DNA of 64,000 nucleotides. Origin: Alphaproteobacteria bacterium. Its GTDB lineage: Bacteria > Pseudomonadota > Alphaproteobacteria > SP197. The DNA lies in NCBI GenBank assembly GCA_965204785.1, contig OZ242015.1:899241-963240 (forward strand), written 5' to 3'. The translations under genes were made by a program, and so were the position numbers. Below the pieces are notes generated by a model. That model saw only the letters and a program-made list of their open reading frames with translations, was not told the origin of the DNA and searched no databases. This document shows, piece after piece, positions 1 through 61,300 of the stretch (its first letter is position 1; each line of letters opens with the position of its first letter).

Positions 1-440
1 ACGACTAGGCGCCGCACATCGCGGCCCGTGCGTTTGGGCGAGCCCTTGGTCGCCAACAGGCACTGCTCGGGATTGGCCCGCGTCCAGTAGCCCATGCCCG
101 TGAAGAAGTCGGTGTCGGTATAGCCTTCTTCATGATCGGCCGAGGCATTGAGCTTGGCCCAGTAAAATCCGACGGTCTTGTACGTGAATCCCCAAGCGTC
201 GATCAGGTCGAGCGCGCGGGGCAAGTGGGTGTCGGTGGTCCACATCAGCAGGACGGCGTCATCGGCTGCCCAGTCCGCAACGGGAAGCGCTTTCATGTCC
301 GCTTGCAACATGCAGTCGTAATGGGCCTGGGCGCCCCGACCCTGGCCCTTGCGGCTCCATGTCGAGAAGTTCCAGGGCGGATCGGTGTAGATCACCGCAT
401 ACTGACCCGACTTCTTCGGCGCTCGCACGTGCATACTCAT
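1..440 (-). CDS. MT-A70 family N6-adenine DNA methyltransferase, 5' part only (gene runs off window start)
   Basis: Manual reverse translation from ATG at 440: MSMHVRAPKKSGQYAVIYTDPPWNF...GFTYKTVGFYWAK...GYWTRANPEQCLLATKGSP; DPPW catalytic motif typical of MT-A70; RBS aggaga upstream; not in ORF track because it lacks a stop inside the window. Confidence 0.7.
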   Translation of the reverse strand, partial: MSMHVRAPKKSGQYAVIYTDPPWNFSTWSRKGQGRGAQAHYDCMLQADMKALPVADWAADDAVLLMWTTDTHLPRALDLIDAWGFTYKTVGFYWAKLNASADHEEGYTDTDFFTGMGYWTRANPEQCLLATKGSPKRTGRDVRRLV

Positions 441-577
441 GGTGCAGGTTGTCTCCTGATTTATGCAATTAAGAAAAACCTGTAACTAATTGAGATTCAA
501 GAAAAATAAGGCTTATCTACAATTAAAATAGATATTGAGTTTCGCATTGCCTGTGACCACTACATGTTGTGGCACCT
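441..577. other. AT-rich intergenic segment, atypical for this 65% GC genome
   Basis: Runs such as aattaaaatagatattgag; sits between the MT-A70 start and the PhnD-like gene end. Confidence 0.5.
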
Positions 578-1390
578 TCAGGCCAGTTCAGGATAGCCGG
601 CCTTGATCGCCTCCTTTTCCATGGTGTCGATCCGGTCATAGGCGGAACGGGGAAGGCTTTCGAAACCGCCCAGCATCAACTGCTCACGTACGTTGGCCAG
701 CGATGAATCCGCAGCGGCTTCCAGCAGGCCGGCACGCAGGGCCTCGACCTCCTTGTCGGAGCGTCCGATATGGGTGACATAGGGCAGGCTGGGTGCTTTG
801 TCGGTCGCGGTCAACGGCTTCGTTCCGGTGGCCAGTTCGGGCATGTGCGCCAGCGTGAGGGCATAGGTTGCGCAATCGATGGCACAAATATCAGCCTTGC
901 CGCTGACCACCGCCTCCATGGAAGCGTGATGGCGGCCGGTTTCCAGCACGCCGGCGAAGAAACGGCCCTGTTCGGCATGGGGTGCGACCAGCGCACGCAA
1001 GGCGTTGAAGCCCGATTGGGAGTCATAGCCGTTCACGGCCACCGTGGCCCCGCGCATGTCCTCGATGGTCTGGCCTTGGCAGTCTTCGTGCACCAGCACG
1101 ACGCTGCGATAGGTCGCGCCTTCGCAATAGGGTGCGGTGTAGCAGGGTGTGGCGACCAGACGCAATTTGTCGGCAAAGTCGTGGGTCAGCGGGTAACCGC
1201 AGGTCTGTGAGAGAAGCAGGTTGGGAGAGGACCAATGGACGAGCCGGTCGCCGAAGTCGCCGCGGTCCATACGATCGGGAACATCCTGCAGGCCGTGCTT
1301 GCCGAACGTCCGCGACAGTGCCGACCACCAGGCATCCGTCGCCTCGCGGATCGGTTCCAGGTCATACATGGGCAGGCTGGCGATGTTCAT
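578..1390 (-). CDS. PhnD/SsuA-type (phosphonate-binding-fold) substrate-binding protein with no signal peptide
   Basis: 270 aa; pfam12974-like pattern (…YRSVVLVHEDCQGQTIEDMRGATVAVNGYDSQSGFNALRALV…SGKADICAIDCATYAL); no N-terminal signal; start overlaps GFA stop (ATGA). Confidence 0.55.
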   Translation of the reverse strand: MNIASLPMYDLEPIREATDAWWSALSRTFGKHGLQDVPDRMDRGDFGDRLVHWSSPNLLLSQTCGYPLTHDFADKLRLVATPCYTAPYCEGATYRSVVLVHEDCQGQTIEDMRGATVAVNGYDSQSGFNALRALVAPHAEQGRFFAGVLETGRHHASMEAVVSGKADICAIDCATYALTLAHMPELATGTKPLTATDKAPSLPYVTHIGRSDKEVEALRAGLLEAAADSSLANVREQLMLGGFESLPRSAYDRIDTMEKEAIKAGYPELA

Positions 1391-1803
1391 GTCTGGCGGC
1401 CGAGCATGCTACCTTCGAAAGCTTCCAGGCCATCGGTGATCTCGTACCAGTCCGGCTTGTCGCCGGTATGGATGTGCCGCACCAGCTTCAGATCTCCGGT
1501 CTCGTCCAGCGCACCTGCCGAGACGGCGGCGTAGCTCTCGAAAGTCGGTTCCCAGAAGAGGCTGGAGCCACACTCCTTGCAGAAACCGCGACGGGCCTTT
1601 TCCGATGACTTGAACCATTCCAGACCGCGGTCCTCGTCGATCGTCAGGGCTTCGCGGTCGCATGCGCTGTAGGCGGCGAAATTGCCGTGAGTTCGCTGGC
1701 ACTGGCCGCAGTGACAGGCGACGATCTGGCGCATGTTCTGGGTTACGTGGAAGCGCACGGCGCCGCACAGGCATCCGCCCGTCATTCTGCTGGCCTTGCT
1801 CAT
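1387..1803 (-). CDS. GFA (glutathione-dependent formaldehyde-activating / CENP-V) family protein
   Basis: GGCLCGAVRF…CHCGQCQ…FCKECGSSLFW zinc-binding Cys pattern. Confidence 0.8.
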   Translation of the reverse strand: MSKASRMTGGCLCGAVRFHVTQNMRQIVACHCGQCQRTHGNFAAYSACDREALTIDEDRGLEWFKSSEKARRGFCKECGSSLFWEPTFESYAAVSAGALDETGDLKLVRHIHTGDKPDWYEITDGLEAFEGSMLGRQT

Positions 1804-1813
1804 GGCGGGTTTC

Positions 1814-2674
1814 TCACTTCACGATCTGGTTGATCAGCTGTCGCGCCAATGCATGCACATCGGGTGGCTGTACGATGGAGGAACGTATAAGGAAGTCAAA
1901 ATGTTCCGTCAGAATGCGGATATGGTCGGTGCTGTTGAACACGAAATAGACATCGCCGGTGTAAAGCACGGCCCGGATGGGCCCGAAGATCGTGACCGGC
2001 GGTGCGTAATGTTCCAGCGCATCGAACAGAAACCAGCGCAGCGTCGGGTAGAGTTCATCGGTCAGGTGGGCGATGCGTTCGAGTTGCAGGCGCCGGCTCC
2101 GGTTCGACAGGTTGCGCCAGATGCCTTCGCCCCGGGCAAAGCCTTCGAGAGCCTGAACGGAACTGCAGATTTCGATGTCGGTCTCGGGCCGGCGGGTATA
2201 GGCGAGATTGTCCTGGGACGAACGGGTTGCCAGTTCCGCGCTCATACCCCGGCTGGCGCCAAACTCGAAGACGTTGACCTCATCGGTCTTTAGGAGGTCG
2301 GGCAGGGTGGTCGGAACGTAGCGAATTTTGTAGCCGGCCGCTTCGGTGTGCCACATCCGCAGACGCTCGTTGGCCGGGTCGGCCGCACCCGTGGCAATCT
2401 CCAGTGGCGCGCCCACGATCGCCTCTTCCGCCTGGTTTTCCTGGCTTAGCCCCAGCAGCCAGTCGGCGCTGACCTGCATGGCCTGGGCGATGGCGGCGAC
2501 GGTGTCGGCGCGTGGCAGGCGGTCGTCCCTTCCGGCCAGCAACTGCGAGAGCGTGGAGCGGTCCACGCCGATGCATCGGGCGAACTCGGCTTGGCGTCCG
2601 CCGCTGCGTTTGATGAGGGCTGCCAGGCGCTCGCGAAACACCCGGATGGATTGCTGTCGGTCAAAACAAGCCAT
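1814..2674 (-). CDS. XRE-family HTH transcriptional regulator with C-terminal regulatory domain
   Basis: N-terminal HTH_XRE (ERLAALIKRSGGRQAEFARCIGVDRSTLSQLLAG); 286 aa; divergent from the desaturase gene. Confidence 0.6.
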   Translation of the reverse strand: MACFDRQQSIRVFRERLAALIKRSGGRQAEFARCIGVDRSTLSQLLAGRDDRLPRADTVAAIAQAMQVSADWLLGLSQENQAEEAIVGAPLEIATGAADPANERLRMWHTEAAGYKIRYVPTTLPDLLKTDEVNVFEFGASRGMSAELATRSSQDNLAYTRRPETDIEICSSVQALEGFARGEGIWRNLSNRSRRLQLERIAHLTDELYPTLRWFLFDALEHYAPPVTIFGPIRAVLYTGDVYFVFNSTDHIRILTEHFDFLIRSSIVQPPDVHALARQLINQIVK

Positions 2675-2785
2675 GGATTTCCGAATTCTGACTGTTGATT
2701 TAAATCACCATATGCGGTGTTTGATGACAAATCGATGCAAAATGTGCCCAAATCCCTACAGACATTAGAGTTATATGACGTTTGA

Positions 2786-3787
2786 ATGAAGCTTCTGTGG
2801 TTTTGTGGGCGCATGACCTTATCGAGCGAAAACCCCGCCCTGTGGCACCGCTGGGAACTCCCCACCTGGGGTATTGCCACCCTGATCTATGGTTCCTGGT
2901 TTGCCCTGACCTGGTGGCACACCGTTCTGCCCGTCTGGTTTCTGATTCCGGTTGGTGCGGTTCTGGTATGCTGGCACGGTCACCTCCAGCATGAAGTGCT
3001 GCACGGACACCCCACGCGAATTGTCTGGCTGAACGAGTCGCTGGTCTTTCCCGCCCTCGGCCTGTGGTTCCCATACGGCGTCTACCGCGACAGCCACCTT
3101 GCCCATCACACCGACTGGCACCTGACCTGTCCCATCGACGATCCCGAGAGCTTCTATGTCACGCCAGAGGTCTGGGCGCGTCTGCCGCGTGCGTGGCAGG
3201 CCGTGCTGCGGTTCAACAACACCGTTGTAGGGCGTCTGCTGATCGGCCCCTTGCTTGCGACCTGGTCTCTCTATGGCGGGGCTGCGGTCAAGCTGGCGAA
3301 GGGCGATGCTACGGAGTTGAAGGCTTGGGTTCTGCATGCGGTGGGTTGCGCCCTCGTGCTCCACTGGCTGATCGTCGTCACGGCTTTTCCGCTCTGGGTC
3401 TATGCGCCCATGGCGTATATCGGCATCTCGCTCATCATGCTGCGTTCGTTCGGGGAACACAGGCCCGCTCCCGATGCCGCAGGGCGCATCTGCATCAACC
3501 TGGCAGAACCGCCCATGGCGCTGCTCTATCTCAACAACAATCTGCACGCCGTCCACCACGCGGCCCCCGGCATGGCCTGGTACGAACTGCCGCGCATGTT
3601 CCGTGCGGATCGTGAGCGGGTTCTTGAGCGCAACGGGGACTTTGTCTGGCGTGGTTACCGCGACCTGTTCCGCCGCCATTTTCTCACACCCAAGGACGAG
3701 CCGGTGCACCCTTATCACGACGACGACCATTGCCGTCCCGTCGCGCCCAGCAGCGGTCAGACCACTGCGATGAACTTTGTTCCCTGA
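2786..3787 (+). CDS. membrane fatty-acid desaturase family protein
   Basis: Three histidine boxes HEVLHGH / HLAHH / HAVHH; multi-TM; true start may be the Met at 2813. Confidence 0.8.
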   Translation: MKLLWFCGRMTLSSENPALWHRWELPTWGIATLIYGSWFALTWWHTVLPVWFLIPVGAVLVCWHGHLQHEVLHGHPTRIVWLNESLVFPALGLWFPYGVYRDSHLAHHTDWHLTCPIDDPESFYVTPEVWARLPRAWQAVLRFNNTVVGRLLIGPLLATWSLYGGAAVKLAKGDATELKAWVLHAVGCALVLHWLIVVTAFPLWVYAPMAYIGISLIMLRSFGEHRPAPDAAGRICINLAEPPMALLYLNNNLHAVHHAAPGMAWYELPRMFRADRERVLERNGDFVWRGYRDLFRRHFLTPKDEPVHPYHDDDHCRPVAPSSGQTTAMNFVP

Positions 3788-3888
3788 AACGCCGCTGTCG
3801 CGATTTCGTGCAAGCGAACGCGACGGTTCCCTACACTCGTGATCCACTCTAGCGTTCGAACTCTTCTCTTCAGTTCCTTCGGACGCTC

Positions 3889-4797
3889 ATGAACCCCAAC
3901 GAGCCAACCCGCGGTCTCGGCATGTCGATCGCGATCCCCACGCTGTTCGTGCTCTTGTGGAGCAGCGGCTTCATCGCCGCCAAGGTGGGCTTGAGCGACA
4001 GCGGTCCGCTGACCTTTCTTTCCCTGCGTTTTGCCCTTGTCACAATTCTTATGCTGATCGTTGCACTCGCCATGCGCGCGCCTTGGCCGGGTTCCTGGCG
4101 CGAGGTCGGACACCTGGCGGTGCTGGGCGTGCTGATGCAGGTGGTCTATTTCGGTGCGGCGTGGATTTCGATGTCCAGGGGTGTGGGCGCGGGCACCGCC
4201 GCGCTGATCGTTTCCATGCAGCCCGTTCTGACCGCCATTGTGGCGGGCAGGGTGCTGGGCGAACGGGTGGGGCCGCGCCAGTGGCTGGGTCTTGCCACCG
4301 GTTTTGTCGGTGTCGTGTTGGTGGTCTCGCAGAAACTCTCGTTAGGCCTTGGTTCGCCCGCCGGCATGCTGTGGTCGTTCATCTCTCTTTTGGGCATCAC
4401 GGCCGGAACGCTTTACCAGAAGCGTTTCTGCCCCACCATGGACCCGCGCACCGGCGGCCTGGTGCAGTTCATCACGGCAACCGCCATGCTGATGCCCTTG
4501 GCTCTCTTGCTCGAGGACTGCGCGATTTCCTGGAGCCTGGAATTCATCGGCGCGCTCTTCTACGTCGTATTTTTCCTCTCGCTCATTTCGGTGACCTTGC
4601 TGACGGTCATGATCAAACGCGGCCAGGCCTCGCGCATGACCAGCATGTTTTTCCTCGTACCGCCGCTCACCGCCGTTCTGGCCTGGATTGTCCTTGGAGA
4701 AACCATGAGTGGTTTAGCCGTCGTCGGTCTCGTCTGTGCGGCCATCGGCGTCGCCCTAGTGGTAGTGCCCGCGCGCAAGCCGCGACTGGCAGCATGA
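3889..4797 (+). CDS. DMT-superfamily (EamA-like) transporter
   Basis: 302 aa, 10 predicted TM helices, duplicated EamA-like halves. Confidence 0.8.
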   Translation: MNPNEPTRGLGMSIAIPTLFVLLWSSGFIAAKVGLSDSGPLTFLSLRFALVTILMLIVALAMRAPWPGSWREVGHLAVLGVLMQVVYFGAAWISMSRGVGAGTAALIVSMQPVLTAIVAGRVLGERVGPRQWLGLATGFVGVVLVVSQKLSLGLGSPAGMLWSFISLLGITAGTLYQKRFCPTMDPRTGGLVQFITATAMLMPLALLLEDCAISWSLEFIGALFYVVFFLSLISVTLLTVMIKRGQASRMTSMFFLVPPLTAVLAWIVLGETMSGLAVVGLVCAAIGVALVVVPARKPRLAA

Positions 4798-5693
4798 GAA
4801 GGCGGCTGGCCACGTTCACCTGGCGGCGTCTGGGTTGGGCGTTGCTGACTCTGGCCTTGGGAACGGCTGGCGCTCTGGTTTTCTAGGCCATCGGCGTTCC
4901 CGCGGCCTTCCTCTCCGGCCTCATGGTCGCGGTCGCCTTATGCGCGGTGCTGTGCGTGCCCGTCGACCTTGCCATGCCCTTGCGCGATGTCGCCTTTGTT
5001 GTGCCGGGAGCAATCCTGGGCACCGCCATGGATCAGGACGCTCTCCTCGCTCCAGGAATGGCCTGTCTCCATCGCGGGCCTTCTCCTGGGTTCTGTCATC
5101 CTCATGACCGTGGTGCCGCGCTACCTCACGCGCGTCCATGGCATCGATGACCGTACGGCCAAGCTCTGCGCCATTCTCCATACTCTGCGCCTCGCTGTCC
5201 TGTTGACGCTGATTCCCGCGACCGTGGCGCTGGCTTTCCACATGGAGGCCGCACAGATCGTTTTATGACGGACCTGATATGTCCTGGCCCGCGGCCGCGC
5301 TGGTTCTCGCCCTTTGTTTTCTGATCGTGCCGCCCGCGCGCCTGTTGCGCCTTCCCGCACCAACCTTCGTGGCGCCTCTCTATGGCCGGGCTGCTCCACG
5401 GGCAGATGCCGCTGGAACTGCTCTGGCCCTCGCTCATCGTCAGCGGTGCGGTGGTGGGCGCCTGGTTCGCCGGAACGACGCTGCGTTACCTCTGGGAGAT
5501 CATCAAGGTGGGACTGGGCGACATTGCGCTTGCCATCGGCATCACTGGCCTGCTGGCGTGGCTAGTCGCCATAATTACCGCGCTTCCCTTCGTGCAGGTC
5601 TGGCCTGCCTTCGCGCCCGGCGGATTCGACGCCATGCCGGTGCTGCCTTCTCCCTGGCGCTCGGCCCCGCCTTTGTCGCCAGGCGCCAGTTGA
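4794..5693 (+). pseudogene. AbrB-family (duplicated 'putative ammonia monooxygenase'-type) membrane protein, disrupted
   Basis: MRRRLATFTWRRLGWALLTLALGTAGALVF-TAG(4884)-AIGVPAAFLSGLMVAVAL…LRDVAFVVPGAILGTAM, then at least two frame changes (fragments 4969-5268, 5279-5737, 5382-5693: …LRLPAPTFVAPLYG / MAGLLHGQMPLELLWPSLIVSGAVVGAWFAG…). Confidence 0.55.
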
Positions 5694-5733
5694 TCCGCTT
5701 CCCGGCGATACCGTTCGTCTTCCGCCAACCGGC

Positions 5734-6315
5734 CTAAAGCGTCCTGCGTACCATGGGACGGCTGGGCAGGGGGCGGGCGACCTCGGTAAAACCGTTATCC
5801 TGAAACGCGCCAAGCGAACCGAAATAGAGCTCCATCCTGCCGGATTTGCCCTTTATCTCGACGGGATAGGCCTCCAGCGCGGTTGCTCCCAACTCACCTG
5901 CCTGACGAACCGCCGCAGCAATCAATGCCCGCATCAGCCCCTTGCGGCGGTACCTCTTGCGCACCACGAAGCAGGTGATCGACCAGACTTCGGTGTCATC
6001 GATCAGGGCAAAGGGTTTGGACCGGTTCAATCGGTCGTATTCCTGCCGCGGCGCTACCGCGCACCATCCCACGGGCGTCGCGCCGTCATAGGCCAGCAGA
6101 CCGGGCGGGCGGCCACTCCTGACCTTGGTCTCCAGCGTCGCCCGGTTGCCTTCGCCCCAGCCGGCCTTGAACTCCTTGTTGGGCAGATACCAGTAGGCGC
6201 ACCAGCACCGCTGCGGGTAGCTGCTGTCCCGGAAGAGAGCTTCGACATCGCCCCATCGCTCCGGCGTGGCCGGCGCAAAGGTGAAGTCCGTATCAAGCAT
6301 GGCGGGTGTCTTCAT
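5734..6315 (-). CDS. GNAT family N-acetyltransferase
   Basis: 193 aa; acetyl-CoA-binding region …VVRKRYRRKGLMRALIAAAVRQAGELGA…. Confidence 0.7.
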   Translation of the reverse strand: MKTPAMLDTDFTFAPATPERWGDVEALFRDSSYPQRCWCAYWYLPNKEFKAGWGEGNRATLETKVRSGRPPGLLAYDGATPVGWCAVAPRQEYDRLNRSKPFALIDDTEVWSITCFVVRKRYRRKGLMRALIAAAVRQAGELGATALEAYPVEIKGKSGRMELYFGSLGAFQDNGFTEVARPLPSRPMVRRTL

Positions 6316-6446
6316 TCGAGCATGGTGTCATCCCGGACAAGCGCCTGATGCGCGCAGATCCGGGACCTCGATAGGCAAACGTCCGTCTCGTATCACCCTG
6401 GCTTGCCCTCGCGTGGCTCGTTTGGCCGGGGTGACACCAAGTGGTG

Positions 6447-7982
6447 TCAATTGTCGTGGACACCGCCTTCTTCCTTGCGTTTGGCGACATAGGCATCGAG
6501 CTCTTCCCGGATGGCGGGATCGAGCGGCGGTTCCTCGAAGTTCTCCAGAAGCTGCTTCCAGATCTTGTTGGCGCGGGTTGCCGCGTCGGGACTGCCGGCT
6601 TCGACCCAGGTCTCGAAGTTGCGCCAGTCCGAGAGCATCGGCGCATAGAACGCGTGTTCGTAGCGGTCGAGCGTGTGCTGCGTGCCGAAGAAGTGGCCGC
6701 CGGGTCCAACATCGCGCATTGCTTCGATGCCGATCTCCTCGTCGTTCACGGTGACCGGCATCATGGTCTCGAACATGCCCTGGAGCATTTCGGCATCGAC
6801 GATCATCTTCTCGAAACTCGCCACTAGGCCGCCTTCCAGCCAGCCTACACCATGGTGGATGAAGTTGCCGTGGGCCAGGAACGCCGCCCACAGCGACATG
6901 CCGGTCTCATAGGCCGCCTGGGCATCGACGGCGTTGGACGCATTGACGTTGCTGGTGCGGAAGGGGATGCCATACTTACGCGCAAGCTGGCCACCCGCCA
7001 GCGTCGCCTTGACGTACTCGGGCGTACCGAAAGCCGGTGCGCCCGACTTCATGTCGACATTGCTGGTAAAGCCGCCATAGACCGCCGGCGAGCCCGGACG
7101 CACGAACTGGACCAGCGCGATGGTCGCCAACGCCTCGGCATTCTGCTGGGTCAGAGCGCCTGCCAGCGTGGTGGGTGCCATCGCGCCCAGTAGGGTGAAG
7201 GGCGTGATCGAAACCGGCTGGCCGTGGGTTGCCATCTCGATCAGGCCCTGGCTCATCGACTCGTCCAAGCGCAGGGGCGAGTTCGTATTGATCAGCGTGA
7301 TCAAGCCTGGCTTCTCGATCATCTCTTCTTCGGAGATGCCTCGCGCGATGCGGTTCATCACGATGCCGTCGCGGCTGCGTTCGGCGCCCAGCGCATAGGT
7401 GCGCCAGACCCGGTCGGTCTGGGTGATGAACGTCATGTAGCAGTCGAGATGCCGGGTCAGGGCCGGTAGATCGATCGGCTCCACCGGGTAGCCGGCGAAG
7501 AAGTGGATGCAGTTGAGGCTGGCTGCCACGCGCACCAGGTTCTGGAAGTCCTCGAACGTGCCCGGGCGACGGCCCTTGTCCATGTCCGAGCAGTTGGGTG
7601 GGCTGGAAACTGCCGCGACCACGATCCGGTTGCCGCCCAGAGTGATGCTCCGCTCGGGCATGCGGCTATGCATGGTGAATTCGGATGGCGCCTTGGCGAT
7701 CTGTTCCATCACCAGACTACGGTCCATGCGCACCCGCATGGCGCTGTCGTCCACATCGGCACCTGCCTTGCGGTAGAGACGCCGGGCCTCGGTCCCCATC
7801 ACCTCCATGCCCAGTTCCTCCAGAACCGTCAGGGAGGAATTGTGGATGTGCTCAAGCTGATCGGCGGAAAGCACGTCGAGCGGCGGGAAGGGGCTGCGCA
7901 CCTCACGCCAGGGAAGCTGTTCCAGAACCGGCTTGGAAGCCCGTCCAGCATCGCGGCGGCGTGAGGTTGAACGGCGGGCCAT
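6447..7982 (-). CDS. MttB-family (trimethylamine methyltransferase-like, non-pyrrolysine) methyltransferase
   Basis: 511 aa, full-length match to the MttB superfamily fold (…TLLGAMAPTTLAGALTQQNAEALATIALVQ…GHFFGTQHTLDRYEHAFY…); no internal amber codon. Confidence 0.8.
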   Translation of the reverse strand: MARRSTSRRRDAGRASKPVLEQLPWREVRSPFPPLDVLSADQLEHIHNSSLTVLEELGMEVMGTEARRLYRKAGADVDDSAMRVRMDRSLVMEQIAKAPSEFTMHSRMPERSITLGGNRIVVAAVSSPPNCSDMDKGRRPGTFEDFQNLVRVAASLNCIHFFAGYPVEPIDLPALTRHLDCYMTFITQTDRVWRTYALGAERSRDGIVMNRIARGISEEEMIEKPGLITLINTNSPLRLDESMSQGLIEMATHGQPVSITPFTLLGAMAPTTLAGALTQQNAEALATIALVQFVRPGSPAVYGGFTSNVDMKSGAPAFGTPEYVKATLAGGQLARKYGIPFRTSNVNASNAVDAQAAYETGMSLWAAFLAHGNFIHHGVGWLEGGLVASFEKMIVDAEMLQGMFETMMPVTVNDEEIGIEAMRDVGPGGHFFGTQHTLDRYEHAFYAPMLSDWRNFETWVEAGSPDAATRANKIWKQLLENFEEPPLDPAIREELDAYVAKRKEEGGVHDN

Positions 7983-8383
7983 GAATTTACTCCTTGGTTC
8001 CGGCGCGGCAAGGCTAGGCGTGCGCGGAATCGAACAACAAGCACCAACCCGTCACATTCCAGCCCGTTTGCGTCGTTGGCCGACGGATTGATACGATCGG
8101 TTCTCATCTGGAATCCGTGAGTTCTTCATAGGTACGCCTTGAGCGCCTGCCCGGGCGAACCGTCCGTCGAAGGTAGGCCGGACGGGCCACTCTTGCTTGG
8201 TTCAATTGCGTCCCTGACCGAGATCATTTCCGGCTGCACGCCACCAAAGCGTTGGGCATTCGGCTACAGCCTTCAGCGTGGGCATAGAGGCAAATTCCAC
8301 CCGCAGGCATGACATGGATCAATGCGGCGAGTCGGAACAGGCCGCGGATATCAGCGAATAACGCTCAATGGGCACCCGCCGAC

Positions 8384-8524
8384 ATGCAAGTTCAGAAAGC
8401 ACCCGATGATGCGCCCGCCGGTAGCAAGCTCCCGGAATGGTTCGTATTCCCGTTTCTAACGGTTTTCATCTAGCCCTTCGTCGCGGTCGGCGTGGTGGGG
8501 GTACTGGCGTGGTGGGGGTACTGA
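8384..8524 (+). pseudogene. napE: napE (small membrane subunit of periplasmic nitrate reductase) remnant
   Basis: MQVQKAPDDAPAGSKLPEWFVFPFLTVFI-TAG(8471)-PFVAVGVVGVLAWWGY; in-frame stop plus a 17-bp tandem duplication in the GGYGF-like region. Confidence 0.5.
8489..8522 (+). repeat. 17-bp perfect tandem duplication (ggcgtggtgggggtact x2) inside the napE remnant
   Basis: Direct reading of the sequence. Confidence 0.85.
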
Positions 8525-8577
8525 TTTGTCGTTTGGATGACTCAACTTATTGAGAGGCCGCCTAGCCCACCTGGCTC

Positions 8578-8877
8578 ATGACCGCACTCTGCAGCGGCAT
8601 CCCGGTCGATAGAGACCATGTCTCGGGGATCGTGGTCTTCCTCGGCCTGGCGGGTCATGGACCGACACTGGCTCGTCTCGCGGTGCCGCCGACGGCGATG
8701 ACCATAGCCCATGAAAGCCGCCGTGTCGCCCTTGTCGTCGAGACCGGGGACGAGCAGGGACTCGCCGATTGCGTCAACAGCCTGTCGCTGATGACCGGTA
8801 TCCAGGCAGCTTCGATAGCCTTTCACAGCATCGATCTCCAGAATGACGAGGTGCACCATGCCGTTATCGCGCCGTGA
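8578..8877 (+). CDS. napD: NapD, chaperone for periplasmic nitrate reductase
   Basis: HVSGIVVF…VALVVETGDEQ…GIQAASIAFH matches the NapD pattern (H.SslVV…klVVvlE…GVl.a.lvyH); the only apparently intact nap gene. Confidence 0.6.
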   Translation: MTALCSGIPVDRDHVSGIVVFLGLAGHGPTLARLAVPPTAMTIAHESRRVALVVETGDEQGLADCVNSLSLMTGIQAASIAFHSIDLQNDEVHHAVIAP

Positions 8878-10238
8878 TCTGATCAGGGCCCAGGCCGTGG
8901 CTGGCTTGCAACTCCCGTGCTCAGCCAGCCCCTCGAGCAGGGAATCGGCGACGTGGAACTCACTTGGCCGAAGGCGCCGTGCCGGTTCTGCGGTACCGGT
9001 TGTGGTGTGATGGTCGGTGTCAAGAAGGGGCGTGTAGTTGCCACCCATGGTGAGGTCAACCGTGGCCTCAACTGCGCGAAGGACGAGTTTCTATCGAAGA
9101 TCATGTACGGCGAGGATCGACTGATGCAGCCTCTATTGCGCATGGCCAATGGTGCCTACGACAAGGATAAGGTGAATTCACACCGGTCACATGGGCCGGG
9201 CTTTCGATGAGATGGCGCGCCAGCGGAAGCGGGTGCTGGCGAAAAAAGGGTCCACCGCGATCGGAATGTTCGGCTCCGGGCAGTGGAGCATCTGGGAAGG
9301 GCATGCCGCCAGCAAGTTGATGCGCGCTGGGTTTGGATCAAACAACCTCAATCCCAATGCCCGGCATTGCATGGCCTCGGCCGCTACGGCGTTCATTCGT
9401 ACGTTCCGCATGGACGAGCCCACGGGCTGCTATGACGATTTTGAGCATGCGGACGACTTCGTGCTCTGGGGCTCAAACATGGCCAAAATGCATCCGGTTC
9501 TTTGGACGCGCCTGACCGACCGCCGCCTAGGGCGTCCCGATGTGCGCGTCAGCGTGCTGTCGACCTAGTACGCACCGCAGTTCCGACTTGGCAGACCTGC
9601 CGATCATTTTCCGTCCTGGCACCGATCTCGTGATCGCCATCCACATCATTGCATCGGGCGCGGTGAACGAGTCATTCGTTTCTCAGAATGCCGGCTTCTG
9701 GCTTGGTAACACCGATGTCGGTTATGGCCTTCGCGACGAGCATCCTTTGCAACAAGCCGGCCAATGCGGGCGACGCGGGAGACATGTCGACGATCGACCT
9801 TCAGACCTATGCTGACTTCGTAGCGGATTACACGCTTGACCGGATCGCCGACCTCACCGGCGTGGAAGCAGACAAGCTGGAGCGTCTGGCCGCCGTCCAC
9901 GCGCATTCGGACCGCAAGGTGATGAGCCTGCGGACCATGGGTTTCAACCAGATGGAAGAAGGATACGCCAATCACGAGGTCGAGGCATTCGGGTTCTACA
10001 TTCAAAAGGGGCTGTTCGAGGAATACGCCAGTTTTGGTCACGGCCACGATCTCGACGATTTCGACACCTACTCACACCAACCGGGGAAACGCTGGTTGGT
10101 CGTCGACGGCCATGAGACACGCTGGTGCTATCGTGCCTGGGAGGACCCCTATGCCACGGTTGACGACGGTGTGCAGTTCTATGGCATGCCCGACGACCGC
10201 GCAAAAATCCCGGCGACGCCCCATGAACCGCCCGCCGC
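8858..10238 (+). pseudogene. napA: napA (catalytic subunit of periplasmic nitrate reductase), heavily degraded
   Basis: Tat signal [17 protein letters not shown] at 8858 overlapping the napD stop. NapA-like pieces sit in at least four frames (…[18 protein letters not shown]… / …[20 protein letters not shown]…[25 protein letters not shown]… / …TMGFNQ|[34 protein letters not shown]…). The junction TMGFNQ|MEEGY implies an internal deletion of roughly 300 aa, and the C-terminal ~150 aa are missing. Confidence 0.75.
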
Positions 10239-10425
10239 TTGCCCGCCAGGGCACCGATGCCGGACGTCAGATTCGGAACTATCCCGAACGATATCGGGGG
10301 CTATCAACTCACGTTGAACGCCAATACCTGTCTCACCTGCCATCGACGTCAGTATATCGAAGCCTTGAGCGCACCCATGATCTCCATCACTCATTTCAGG
10401 ACCGTGACGGCCGGATTGTTGAGAA
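10239..10425 (+). pseudogene. napB: napB (dihaem cytochrome c subunit) fragment: first haem site only
   Basis: …[46 protein letters not shown]… matches the NapB region PPMIPH..GYQ.T.N.N.CLQCH…AP.ISPTHF; signal peptide and second CxxCH lost. Confidence 0.55.
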
Positions 10426-10446
10426 ATGCGAAAGATGGGTGGGTTA

Positions 10447-10476
10447 TTGATGCGAAAGATGTTGTGACGGCGATGT
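10447..10476. repeat. left 30-bp terminal inverted repeat (ttgatgcgaaagatgttgtgacggcgatgt)
   Basis: Perfect reverse complement of 10833-10862. Confidence 0.85.
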
Positions 10477-10832
10477 GGGATTACGTGACCGGATGCGGGA
10501 TTCAACGGGATGTTGAGACAATCAATGCGCCCCCATCGCCTTCGGGGTCAGGGTCCGCGTCGTCGTCGAGGGCGTCGATGACGATGCGGGAGATCGCCTC
10601 GTTGTCCTCGGTCGAGAGGCCGAGGAGGAGCGCCCGCGACGCAGGCTGCGTCCTGAATAAACGCCTTGCGTTTAGTCGTTCAGTCGCCATGTGACCGCGC
10701 GCCCGCGCCCCCGATGCAAGGCCGCTTGCATGACTCCTGCAACGGCCCTGAAGCGCCCGTGAACGGCCCTCCCGGGAGGCTCGGTCCCCGGCCCGAATCG
10801 AACCCGAAATCAACAATGTGTTGAAATAATCA

Positions 10833-10862
10833 ACATCGCCGTCACAACATCTTTCGCATCAA
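10833..10862. repeat. right 30-bp terminal inverted repeat
   Basis: acatcgccgtcacaacatctttcgcatcaa, reverse complement of the left IR. Confidence 0.85.
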
Positions 10863-10894
10863 AAACCCGCGCGTTTTTCGCGTGCCTCTAGTCA

Positions 10895-11110
10895 GTGCGC
10901 CTTCCCGATGAGACCTGTGCCCGTCTCAAGTTCCTTGCGGAGAGAACGGGATGCACGGCCACATTCTACATTCGGGAAGCCATCGAACGGCATCTGGATG
11001 ATCTGGAAGGCCGCTATGCAGCCGAACAGGCGCTGATCGCCCACCGAAGATCCGGCGACCGCACGCTCACGCTGGACGAGCTGGACGCCGAACTTGGCCT
11101 GGGAAATCAG
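10895..11110 (+). CDS. ribbon-helix-helix (CopG/ParD-like) type II antitoxin; the ORF has lost its stop and reads through to 11323
   Basis: GTG start; MRLPDETCARLKFLAERTGCTATFYIREAIERHLDDLEGRYAAEQALIAHRRSGDRTLTLDELDAELGL = RHH fold then a ParD-like tail; begins 33 bp after the right IR. Confidence 0.55.
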
Positions 11111-11169
11111 GATCACGGCAAGAGCGGCCTAGCAGATCGGGAAACTCGGGTCGCGCTGACGTCACACGT

Positions 11170-11370
11170 ATTCAGGCATTATCTAGTAAACCGGATCGCC
11201 ATCCTCGGCGATCCCCGCCAGTTGATAAAGCCTCTCTGCTGCGCGGATCCGAACTGGGCAATTTCTGGCGCTGGCGCGTTGGAAATTTTCGCATTCTGTG
11301 TGACATGCAGGATACAGAACTGATTGTTCTGGTGGTTGAAGTCGGACATCGTCGCGAGGTCTGTCGATAG
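11170..11370 (+). pseudogene. ParE/RelE-family toxin remnant (C-terminal motif only, different frame from the antitoxin)
   Basis: Frame ending at TAG 11368-11370 reads …LLRGSELGNFWRWRVGNFRILCDMQDTELIVLVVEVGHRREVCR = canonical ParE/RelE C-terminus (…R.RvG.YRiiy.i.dd.l.vl.v.HRkdvY); no recognisable N-terminal half. Confidence 0.5.
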
Positions 11371-11439
11371 CGCGTGCGAAGCTGGGACCTCCACCACAAT
11401 CGTTCGACCGACGAGGTGAGCAGACGGGAGCAGGACGCC

Positions 11440-11622
11440 ATGGACAGCGACGATCTGGAACTCAGACGCCCGGACGACGGGCCGAAAAACCTGGAGGCGA
11501 TGTCGATCGAGGCGCTCCGCGCCTATGTCGGGAAACTCGAAGCCGAGATCGAACGCGTCCGCGACGTGATCAGGCAGAAGGAAGCCGCCAGAAATTCGGC
11601 TGCATCCTTTTTCAAGACCTAA
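11440..11622 (+). CDS. DUF1192-family small protein
   Basis: MDSDDLELRRPDDGPKNLEAMSIEALRAYVGKLEAEIERVRDVIRQKEAARNSAASFFKT, the conserved alphaproteobacterial DUF1192 pattern; an in-frame GTG at 11374 is also possible. Confidence 0.65.
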   Translation: MDSDDLELRRPDDGPKNLEAMSIEALRAYVGKLEAEIERVRDVIRQKEAARNSAASFFKT

Positions 11623-12169
11623 GTTCGGGCCTTTCCGCCGCTCGACCATGTAGACCAGCGTGGTCGCGCCGAACAAGGTCCACGGGTTCACAATGCCCAC
11701 GACGATCAGGAGAGCACCCAGGAGAAGGCTCGTGCACGCGGTCGTGCGGCCTGCGAACATCATCGTCGTCAGCGCATAACGCTTCGCGTGGCGGCCCGGG
11801 AGGAAACTCCCGAACAGGAAGACACCGGTGATCGCGCCCTGCAGGGCGCGGAAGCCCAGGAAGACCCAGAAACTGGCGGCCTGCGTGCGGCCAAGAGATG
11901 CGAGCGTGAAGACAAGAGCTGCCAGCTGGACGACCTCTTGTTTGTGAAGGGCGACTTATGGCGGCCGAGAGAAAGGGGCAACGTTATCGAGTGCAGCCTC
12001 ATGGCCGCTCCTGACGGCGTGCCGGGCCGGTCGGCGGAAATCCAGCGGGCAAGCGGTCGGAAGCCTTTTTGTCCACACCATCGATCTGCCGGATATGGTA
12101 TTGTGCTTGGGTAACCGGCGCGATATCTGGACGCCAACAGATAGAGTTGGACGAAAATTCGAGGACGTT

Positions 12170-12919
12170 ATGGCTGGTCATTCCAAATGGAAGAACATCC
12201 AGCACCGCAAGGGTGCCCAAGACGCCAAGCGCGCCAAGCAGTTCACCAAGGTGGGCCGCGAGATCGCCGTCGCTGCGCGTTCGGGATTGCCCGATCCCGA
12301 TCACAATCCCCGTCTGCGCGCCGCGGTCCAGGCCGCGCGCACGGTCAACATGGGCAAGGACGCCATCGACCGCGCGATCAAGCGCGCCGTGGGTGGCGAG
12401 GACAACGTCGATTATCAGGAGATGCGCTACGAGGGTTACGGCCCCGGCGGCATCGCGCTCATCGTCGAGGCGCTGACCGACAACCGCAACCGCACCGCCT
12501 CGGAAGTCCGCGCCGCGTTCAACAAGGCAGGCGGGGCGCTGGGTGAGACCGGCAGCGTGGCGTTCATGTTCGAACGTTTCGGCCAGATCGTCTTCGATGC
12601 ACAAGTCGGCGATGCCGACACCATGTTCGAAGCCGCATTCGAGGCCGGTGCGACCGATGTCGTTTCCGACCAGGACGGCCACACGATCTATTGTGCGCCT
12701 GAGGATTTCGGTCAGGTCAGCGAGATGGTGACTGAACGCTTCGGCGACCCCACCGAAGCCGGGCTGACCTGGAAGGCTTCGACGACCATCGGGGTAGATG
12801 AGGAAAAGGCCGCGTCCCTGCTGAAGCTGATCGAGGTGCTCGAGGACAGCGACGACGTGCAGTCGGTCTCCGCCAACTTCGAGATTGCCGATGATGTCAT
12901 GGAACGGTTGGTGGCCTGA
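12170..12919 (+). CDS. yebC: YebC/PmpR-family DNA-binding transcriptional regulator
   Basis: [25 protein letters not shown]…; conserved upstream of ruvC. Confidence 0.9.
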
Positions 12920-12925
12920 GGCAGC

Positions 12926-13435
12926 ATGATGCGTGTTCTGGGCATTGATCCAGGTCTCCAGCATACCGGGTGGGGTGTCATCGACATTGACGGCAATGCG
13001 CTGCGCCATGTCGCACACGGCGTCATTTCGCCCGCCGCGTCCCTGCCCATAGCCGAACGCCTGACGGCTATCTTCGACGGCGTTCAGACCGTGCTCTCCG
13101 AGCAGAAGCCCGATCATGTCGCCATCGAGGAAACCTTTGTCAACCGCAATCCTGACAGCACTCTCAAACTGGGCCTGGCGCGCGGCGCGGCCCTGGTCGC
13201 CGCCGCTTCGACCGGGCTTCCGGTCTCCGAGTACGCCGCGCGGCTGGTAAAGAAGTCGGTCGTGGGGACGGGCAAGGCCGACAAGGCCCAGATCGCCACC
13301 ATGATCGCGGTACTTCTGCCCAGCGCGAAGGTCGCTAACGCGGATGCAGCAGACGCGCTTGCCGTGGCGGTCTGTCATGCGCATCACACGGCGACACTCG
13401 GACCCCGCCGTATCGCCGCCGGAGCCGCGGCATGA
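12926..13435 (+). CDS. ruvC: crossover junction endodeoxyribonuclease RuvC
   Basis: MRVLGIDPGLQHTGWGVID… RuvC fold. Confidence 0.92.
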   Translation: MMRVLGIDPGLQHTGWGVIDIDGNALRHVAHGVISPAASLPIAERLTAIFDGVQTVLSEQKPDHVAIEETFVNRNPDSTLKLGLARGAALVAAASTGLPVSEYAARLVKKSVVGTGKADKAQIATMIAVLLPSAKVANADAADALAVAVCHAHHTATLGPRRIAAGAAA

Positions 13436-16231: not shown

Positions 16232-16686
16232 TGGCCGTCCAGTTCACAGCAGGCGGAGGCGGTTACCGCAGCGCGCGTGCGCGCCGCCGCCGCCCGCCCA
16301 TGAGCGAGATCAACGTCACGCCCCTGGTCGACGTCATGCTGGTGCTGCTCATCGTCTTCATGATCGCCGCACCACTGCTCACCGTAGGCGTGGAGATCGA
16401 GCTTCCTGACGCCAATGTCGGCGAACTTTCCGGCCAGGACGAGCCGCTTGAGGTCACGGTCCAGGCCGACGGCAGCCTCTACCTCATGGAAACGCCGGTC
16501 GAACTCGATGAACTTGGCCCTCGTCTTGTCGCAATTTCGCAAAACAATCCCGATATCCGGATTTTCGTCCGGGGTGATCGCGGTGTCGCGTATGGAGAGG
16601 TCATGGCTGTCATGGGTGTCCTGAACGAAGCGGGCTTCACGCATCTTGCGCTGGAAGCCGAGCGTCCGCGCGGAGAAGCGGAGTAG
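16231..16686 (+). CDS. tolR: Tol-Pal system protein TolR
   Basis: ExbD/TolR family (…SEINVTPLVDVMLVLLIVFMI…). Confidence 0.9.
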
Positions 16687-16692
16687 GCCGGC

Positions 16693-17589
16693 ATGTCACC
16701 GACAGGATTTTCCCTCTCGGTTGCAATGCATGTGGCGCTGGTGGCGTTCGTCATCATCGGTCTGCCGCAGTTGTGGAAGGATGTGCCCGAGCCTGTCGAC
16801 TCCGTGACGGTCGATCTTCTGGTCCTGACCGAGGAGGCGGGAGCACCCGCGCCCGCGCCCGAACCGGTCGAGGAGGCCGAGGAGGCCGAGGAGATTGCCC
16901 AGTCCGAGCCGGAGCCCAAAGTCGTGAGCCTCGACATGCCCGAGCCGCTGCCCGAACTCGAAGACCTGCCGGAACTCGAGCTTCCCGACCCCGTCGCTCT
17001 GCCCGACCCCGTCGCTCTGCCCGAGCCTGAGCCGTTGCCCGAACCCGAACCGACCCCGGAGCCGGTGGTCGCCGCCGCACCCGTGCCGGTCGAGAAACCC
17101 GACACGCCGCCCAAGCCCGAGGAGCCTCAGTTCACCGACATGATGGCAAGCCTTCTCATCGATCAGGCCGCCGATGAACCGCCGCCGCCGGCCGAGCCGG
17201 AATCAACGTCGAACTTCGAAGAGATGCTTGCCTCTCTGGATTCCTCGGTCAATGCGCCGCCCGCCGATGAAGAGACCGCCACCATTAGCTCCCTGATCTC
17301 CCAGCAGATCGCCAAGCGATGGAACATCCTGGGCGGCGCCGCCGATGCCGAGGGCCTAGTTGTCACCATCCAAATCGCCCTTGCCCCCGACGGCAGGGTG
17401 CTGATCGCCAAGGTTACGGGCGTCACAGGGGGCACGACCCAGGAATTTCGTAACGCCGCGCGCGCTTCCGCGCTGCGTGCCGTACTCTACTTTGAGGATC
17501 ACCCGTTCCTGAATCTGCCGCTGGACCGTTACGATGTCTGGCGCAACATCATTATCAAATTCGACCCGCGTCAGATGTTGAGGACTTGA
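16693..17589 (+). CDS. tolA: cell-envelope integrity protein TolA
   Basis: N-terminal TM helix, Pro/Glu/Ala-rich linker, C-terminal TolA domain. Confidence 0.85.
16986..17021 (+). repeat. 18-bp tandem repeat cccgaccccgtcgctctg x2 in the tolA linker ([12 protein letters not shown])
   Basis: Direct reading; further EEAEEAEE repeat at 16860-16890. Confidence 0.8.
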
Positions 17590-60619: not shown

Positions 60620-61300
60620 GTGCCCAGCTTGCCTTCTATGGCCTCGACTACGAATGCGTGTGCGCAGGCGAGTTGTTCGAGGACGCCCGGGAGCGGCAAA
60701 GTGGTGCTGGACATTCCACGCGACCGCAACGGCAGCTTCGATTCTCCTTTGATTGCCAAGTTCGGCGCCGATCTGGCGCGCAAGTATCTCCACGAGTCCG
60801 ACCTGAAAGACGCGACCATGACTGGGGCCAAGCTGGACTACGCCACGCTGACAATGTCCGAACTGGACGACATCGTCCTTCGTGACGTTCAGGCCAAGGG
60901 CATGTCCATGACAGGCTCCAGCGCAGAGCGTGCCGACCTCACTGGCGGCCAGTTTCAGGAGGCGCGGTTCCTGCGCACCTACATGGAAGAGGCGACACTG
61001 GACGACGCCGACTTCACGGATGCGAACATGAAGGAGGTCAATCTGTGCGAGGCCAGCGCTGTACGTGCGGTCATGAAGTACGCCGACCTTCGTGAAGCCG
61101 ACATGGTGAGCGCAAAACTGGAAGGTGCGAACCTGAGATACGCCGACCTGCGCAAGGCCGATTACCCGAACGCGCTGGAGAAGGGGACGATCTCCGTGTG
61201 TTATGCAAAGAGATGGAACTCCCCGCCACGGGGACGAACGCCGTGCTGCTGGAACGCATCCGGGAAAAGGGCGGCGAGGTCGAGTTCTGGCCGGAGATAA
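60620..61300 (+). CDS. pentapeptide-repeat protein
   Basis: Tandem A(D/N)LxxA-type pentapeptides (…ADLTGGQFQEARFLRTYMEEATLDDADFTDANMKEVNLCEASAVRAVMKYADLREADMVSAKLEGANLRYADLRKAD…); N- and C-terminal boundaries uncertain. Confidence 0.5.
   Translation: MPSLPSMASTTNACAQASCSRTPGSGKVVLDIPRDRNGSFDSPLIAKFGADLARKYLHESDLKDATMTGAKLDYATLTMSELDDIVLRDVQAKGMSMTGSSAERADLTGGQFQEARFLRTYMEEATLDDADFTDANMKEVNLCEASAVRAVMKYADLREADMVSAKLEGANLRYADLRKADYPNALEKGTISVCYAKRWNSPPRGRTPCCWNASGKRAARSSSGRR

Follow-up and report, generated by a model that had tools for sequence, protein, structure and literature searches.

A napB reading frame in the window (the whole 64,000-nucleotide stretch of DNA analysed here) breaks off at a short sequence bounded by inverted repeats, which raises the question of what this sequence is and where it came from. 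The initial annotation placed a 416-bp MITE-like element here and read it as a small non-autonomous element or a foldback scar that resembled no known insertion sequence (IS). The analysis presented below indicates that positions 10417–10894 are very probably what remains of a Mu-like transposable prophage that lost its interior but kept both of its ends, a relic that is non-autonomous and probably inert. Mu-like prophages are common in the Alphaproteobacteria (PMC5488378).

Results

Inverted-repeat arms and limits of the element

The repeat, TTGATGCGAAAGATGTTGTGACGGCGATGT, is found at 10447–10476 on the plus strand and at 10833–10862 on the minus strand with no mismatches. When up to three mismatches were allowed, these two sites were the only matches to the 30-mer in the 64-kb window, and none of 100 dinucleotide shuffles contained a match, which bears out the perfect 30-bp inverted repeat as a non-random feature. 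The similarity outside the repeat, put initially at about 4 further bp, was underestimated. The ungapped arms (10421–10476 and 10833–10888) are 56 nt long and 86% identical, and a single 2-nt gap extends them to about 60 nt, with a symmetric TG at 10417 and CA at 10894. The original limits (10447–10862, 416 bp) are replaced here by about 10417–10894 (478 bp).

Each arm carries two ATGCGAAAGATG-like units, GCGAAA(G/A), spaced 24 nt apart. The left arm (10417–10476), referred to as the Y-end and located on the side of the gpG gene remnant described below, starts with TG; the ATGCGAAAGATG units lie at 10426 and at 10450, and the perfect repeat makes up the inner 30 nt. The right arm, or X-end (10833–10894), also has the perfect repeat as its inner 30 nt, while its outer part reads ...AAAAACCCGCGCGTTTTTCGCGTGCCTCTAGTCA and terminates in CA. 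There is no 5-bp target-site duplication, the flanks being CGGAT and GTGCG, and none is found under four other choices of boundary.

The open reading frame inside the element

The 62-codon, acidic open reading frame (ORF) reported from the interior of the element does exist, on the minus strand at 10690–10502, and proves to be an accidental chimera and not a real gene. It has no Pfam or PHROG match of its own, and among 5.8 billion protein clusters the only match was one protein, P0001, with no duplicate of the ORF. P0001 is a 161-residue protein of the Phage_tail_S family (PF05069) and belongs to PHROG 26 (tail completion/Neck1, 3e-41). In the BLASTP alignment of the ORF with P0001, LGLSTEDNEAISRIVIDALDD is aligned with LGLSTEDTEAISRIVIDALDD, and the final 22 residues of P0001, LGLSTEDTEAISRIVIDALDDA, are nearly identical to LGLSTEDNEAISRIVIDALDDD of the ORF.

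DNA and protein alignments together identify 10548–10626 (minus strand) as the 26 terminal codons and the stop codon of a gene for a Mu gpG-type virion morphogenesis/tail-completion protein (PF05069). A 1-nt deletion near 10558 shifts the former gpG stop (10550–10548) out of frame, and the acidic C-terminal extension of the ORF is the frameshifted read-through beyond this stop. The ORF thus has the gpG tail as its middle, whereas its start and first ~21 codons are noncoding DNA of the X-end. An apparent similarity between the first part of the ORF and P0001 was rejected as spurious, the same DNA being noncoding X-end sequence in the related contig L021 described below. A search of positions 8000–13000 against Rfam gave no match at E ≤ 1.

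A larger form of the element and the deletion junction

L021 is a 7,223-bp contig from the ENA metagenomes and encodes a cluster-mate of P0001. Two segments of it match the element by blastn, with L021 38–301 corresponding to window 10892–10627 (93% identity) and L021 7036–7222 to window 10626–10441 (95% identity). The two segments abut in the window at 10627|10626, and the two ends of L021 bear the same arms, from which it follows that the window element is an L021-type element minus L021 302–7035. At the junction (10626..10627) L021 position 301 is joined to position 7036, with 6,734 bp missing and a microhomology of 2–3 bp (CC/TCC). The window retains the truncated end of a gene, so the direction of change, by deletion from a larger form, is clear.

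The L021 genes located between the matches are, in order, a tail-collar gene (L021 311–883, minus strand), Phage_Mu_Gp27, Terminase_6C, Portal_Mu together with Phage_Mu_F, a gene for a 167-aa protein without known function, and gpG (Phage_tail_S). The gp27, terminase, portal-MuF and gpG genes stand in the order found in Mu. The remaining interior of the window element is subterminal noncoding DNA. On the Y-end side this DNA extends from the gpG stop to the arm (10477–10547, minus strand), lies within the 95% match and follows the L021 gpG stop (7113–7115). On the X-end or tail-fibre side (10627–10832) it lies within the 93% match, is located downstream of the tail-collar gene in L021 and supplies the spurious 62-aa ORF with its start codon and N-terminus. 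Genes for MuA and MuB are present in neither the window element nor L021, so that the relic can be at most a non-autonomous derivative.

The comparison with L021 also bears on the limits of the element. Positions 10441–10476 of the window are identical to L021 7187–7222, and as L021 ends at the position matching window 10440, inside the Y-end arm, the left limit at 10417 is drawn solely from the symmetry of the arms. At the X-end the homology breaks at ACTAGAGG (L021 38, window 10892) and a different flank lies beyond, which fixes this limit to within ~2 nt; the X-end terminus is TG in the window and TA in L021. L021 1–37 is unrelated to the right flank of the window element, which points to the same element being inserted elsewhere than at the window locus.

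Mu-like relatives

The closest relatives that could be retrieved, L104–L107, have terminases 73–75% identical to that of L021 and come from three prophage copies in one 3.57-Mb genome. On their plus strand they encode, in order, a transposase (rve and Mu-transpos_C), a MuB-like AAA ATPase, GemA, a Mor-like helix-turn-helix protein, lysis proteins and then a gp27-to-gpG block consisting of gp27, terminase, portal-MuF, a gene without known function and gpG. An S24 repressor is encoded on the minus strand. On its far side the genes for protease, capsid, gp36 and tail proteins run in inverted orientation, a block seen at L105 1–8060 and L106 1–5691. In these relatives gpG is the final gene at its end. 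Up to and including ...CTTTCGTCCGGTTACA-3' L104 and L107 are near-identical, after which they split into different host DNA, thereby defining a CA-3' terminus about 270 bp beyond gpG. The Y-end of the relatives therefore finishes in CA, and the termini of the window element, as judged by arm symmetry, are TG...CA.

This layout explains both L021 and the window element, in which one end comes after gpG and the other after a minus-strand gene of tail-fibre type. In canonical Mu, G is followed by I and T. We know of no earlier description of a lineage with gpG at one terminus and with inverted capsid and tail genes on the far side of the repressor.

Two further features of these loci were observed. 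The portal and MuF proteins are fused into one protein of 1,062–1,240 aa (L104 11452–15174, L107 11443–15120 and L021 2873–6061), and the C-terminus of the L104 fusion has a weak match to ADP-ribosyltransferase (ART), recalling MuF-linked toxin domains. Directly outside the CA-3' terminus of L104, at 16303–16965, there is an inverted partial copy (84–94% identity) of its own DUF5675/Mor region (L104 7768–8405), which looks like an insertion into, or a rearrangement with, another copy of the L104 phage.

Comparison of the ends with phage Mu

Read from the outside, the left arm begins TGTTGAGAAATGCGAAAGATGG...; its CGAAA starts at nt 13, as does that of the Mu right end (TGAAGCGGCGCACGAAAAACG...). 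The outer part of the right arm, CGCGTTTTTCGCGTGCCTCTAGTCA-3', resembles CGCGTTTTTCGTGCGCCGCTTCA-3' of Mu. In an unbiased scan the Mu right-end 30-mer and the L2–L3 region each scored best in the window at the arms, with small margins of 1–2 points over the window background (25 vs 24 and 23 vs 21). Judging by sequence, the GCGAAA(G/A) units are probably binding sites for a MuA-type DDE transposase. A specific equation of the right arm with the Mu right end was dropped, the statistics being too weak to assign the arms to left and right.

The flanking genes

The element is placed exactly at the break in napB, as the initial annotation had it. The left flank is a napB pseudogene fragment (10281–10416, plus strand) cut at the element end. 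The Pfam NapB match covers profile positions 51–93 of 127 (nt 10281–10409) and ends just before 10417, in agreement with the reported loss of the NapB frame at this point; the frame reads DRDGRIV and, at about 10417–10421, departs from the NapB consensus. The gene lacks the first ~50 and the last ~34 profile positions, such that the second haem motif and the C-terminus are gone. Upstream, napA consists of three frame-shifted fragments (8917–10317) totalling ~1.3 kb compared with ~2.5 kb, and has a Tat-type signal. The decayed nap cluster (8578–10416) includes a possible napD, with a weak Pfam match below the cutoff, and lacks napC.

The right flank is an ORF for a ribbon-helix-helix (RHH) antitoxin (10895–11120, plus strand). 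Its GTG start at 10895 coincides with the end of the element and lies 33 bp past the right repeat (10862), as had been stated. The first codons are apparently missing: weak Pfam matches to RHH_3, TraY and RHH_1 begin at profile positions 3–8, and there is an in-frame stop at 10889–10891. The RHH/ParE module as a whole (10895–11370) is degraded, and the C-terminal half of ParE (PF05016, 3.7e-7) and the part of the toxin upstream of it are in different frames, implying a frameshift near 11230–11240.

The window is colinear with metagenomic relatives (L108–L112, 76–83% nucleotide identity) from MT-A70 to MttB (window 1–8083), where the colinearity ends abruptly. Past 8083 a second MttB gene and an aromatic-amino-acid lyase come next in the relatives, whereas the window continues with the nap debris and then DUF1192-YebC-RuvCAB. 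As synteny stops at 8083, the whole stretch from 8.1 to 11.4 kb is a degraded, rearranged zone.

Other copies and the search for a cognate transposase

At least two larger copies of the element are very probably present in the source genome, outside the window. The proteins assigned by inference to the 3.75-Mb source contig are two gpG variants (P0001 and P0003) and P0004, a terminase with 100% identity to that of L021. Copies of the element and of its relatives stand at unrelated sites, the flank of L021 differing from that in the window and the flanks of L104 and L107 differing from each other. The source contig contains none of the 120 best homologues of the relative's MuA-type transposase, so that no autonomous partner was found within this set.

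The short form has no second copy in the 64-kb window or in the collections searched. The sole plasmid match by blastn with 10400–10900 was of low complexity, ~57 bp long and located in a Rhizobium sulfate-transporter gene, and in phages the same query gave only 29-bp chance matches. A 20-mer of the repeat core had three single matches in 185,579 GTDB species genomes (Sulfuricurvum and Muribaculaceae), read as chance and forming no family, while patterns for the repeat and for the subterminal sequences had no matches in IMG/VR or the JGI metagenomes. The IMG/VR relatives reach at most 57% identity for gpG and 70% for the terminase, and similar arms are present in none of them. Comparison of the phage loci with the window by tblastx revealed no further phage remnant, and its list of weak matches is sum-statistic noise.

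Elsewhere in the window, an ORF with pentapeptide repeats (60620–61300) has an N-terminal ...DIPRDRNGSFDSPLIAKF... that recalls a short IS256-type transposase motif. An IS256 fragment was considered here and was not supported, Pfam giving pentapeptide repeats only; the ORF may be a fusion with an IS fragment, or the likeness may be a coincidence.

Discussion

The relic compared with known systems

The nearest parallels to the element are defective Mu-like prophages and the mini-Mu derivatives made in the laboratory (Mu, RcapMu of Rhodobacter capsulatus, FluMu and MuMenB-type remnants), which likewise keep both inverted ends with the interior deleted. Repeated units containing CGAAA near the termini and insertion at unrelated loci are common to Mu-like prophages and the relic, and so, judging by arm symmetry, probably are TG...CA termini. 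The order gp27-terminase-portal-F-G is shared by Mu and L021, and the relatives L104–L107 encode MuA, MuB, GemA and Mor. By contrast, neither the relic nor the 7.2-kb L021 has a transposase, and the relic lacks a 5-bp duplication. The attL and attR of Mu are also far less alike than the arms of the relic (30 nt perfect, ~60 nt overall), and in the family of the relic gpG abuts one end, where Mu has the tail-fibre/mom region or the repressor.

A small non-autonomous element with terminal inverted repeats, unlike any known IS, was correctly recognised at the outset; L021 argues against its further interpretation as a MITE, an IS derivative or a foldback scar. In small size, terminal inverted repeats, lack of coding sequence and position at a disrupted gene the relic does resemble MITEs. 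If it were a true MITE, its short form would have been amplified and moved in trans, and the phage-derived interior would be mere history. Such an origin would suit a noncoding element of 478 bp that has intact arms with a perfect 30-bp core, stands at a gene break and belongs to a family found at more than one locus. It is nevertheless quite improbable, given that no second short copy occurs in the window, the 185,579 GTDB species genomes, plasmids, phages, IMG/VR or the JGI metagenomes, that there is no target-site duplication, that the chimeric ORF has no duplicate among the protein clusters and that the source genome has no cognate transposase among the 120 best homologues. MITEs derive from IS elements, whereas the ends of the relic are those of a transposable phage; its interior is a one-off deletion product with a gene fragment, and it shows no sign of amplification of the short form.

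A perfect 30-bp inverted repeat around 356 bp could also suggest an invertible DNA switch of the fimS, Mu G segment or Bacteroides inverton type, flipped by a site-specific recombinase, through which the antitoxin or nap genes next to it would be controlled. In phage Mu an invertible segment flanked by repeats lies beside the tail-fibre genes; inverted repeats of ~30 bp, a Mu-like phage and a tail-fibre neighbour (the collar gene in L021) are common to the Gin/Hin-type G segment and the relic. In L021, however, 7.1 kb separate the arms, which delimit the element on the outside and enclose head genes and not alternative tail-fibre exons, and the flank changes outside one arm, as it does beyond the repeats of the relic, which stand at its outer ends. 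There is no invertase gene, the scan of neighbouring ORFs gave no recombinase domain, no promoter-like site is present inside the segment, and the adjoining genes are pseudogenes, all of which makes a switch very unlikely. It is likewise very unlikely that no mobile element is involved and that the structure arose as a scar of foldback or palindromic duplication or through misassembly. The flanks are indeed non-contiguous and the whole 8.1–11.4 kb region is degraded, but the independently assembled L021 has the same arms on the same subterminal sequences, and the inversion is limited to the ~60-nt ends, the interior not being palindromic.

Proposed history of the locus

The preferred reading, a deleted Mu-like prophage with both ends retained, suggests the following course of events. 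An element with two inverted ends of ~60 bp would have been inserted at the locus. Judged by L021, this ancestor would already have been without a transposase and most structural genes, and would have had the order X-end, 264 bp, tail-collar, gp27, terminase, portal-MuF, the gene of unassigned function, gpG, 70 bp and Y-end. An illegitimate deletion at the 2–3 bp microhomology would then have removed 6.7 kb, from 9 bp past the collar stop to gpG codon ~136. Besides the two ends, 277 bp of subterminal noncoding DNA and 79 bp of gpG would have survived.

The napB and antitoxin flanks are not contiguous host DNA and share no duplication, which implies that one flank has been lost. Mu-type elements classically give rise to two kinds of event by which this may have happened, recombination between two copies at different sites and a transposition-associated adjacent deletion; either would also have taken away napC and the napB 3' end. 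A lost flank would make the absence of a target-site duplication explicable, and that absence is not in itself evidence for membership of the Mu-like group.

The relic codes for nothing and is most likely inert. Given its mini-Mu anatomy, it might in principle still be mobilised in trans by a cognate transposase, and a still-mobile relic would be a phage-derived MITE or 478-bp 'natural mini-Mu', its unusually long and perfectly matched ends maintained by a MuA-type transposase in the genome or in an infecting relative. We regard this as improbable. If it were true, transposable phages would seed MITE-like families in the Alphaproteobacteria, and napC and the 3' end of napB would have gone in an adjacent deletion mediated by transposition.

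The decayed ends of a prophage are commonplace, and the relic adds no new kind of mobile element to those known; it is genome debris of an ordinary sort. For annotation, this means that the 62-codon acidic ORF should not be called a gene and that what looks like a MITE is prophage debris. On a modest scale the locus also says something wider: the relic and its relatives represent a Mu-like lineage whose two ends are very alike and whose gene layout is unusual. At this locus the relic marks the point at which a nap operon and a ParDE-type module were destroyed, with Mu-type elements as agents of gene loss.
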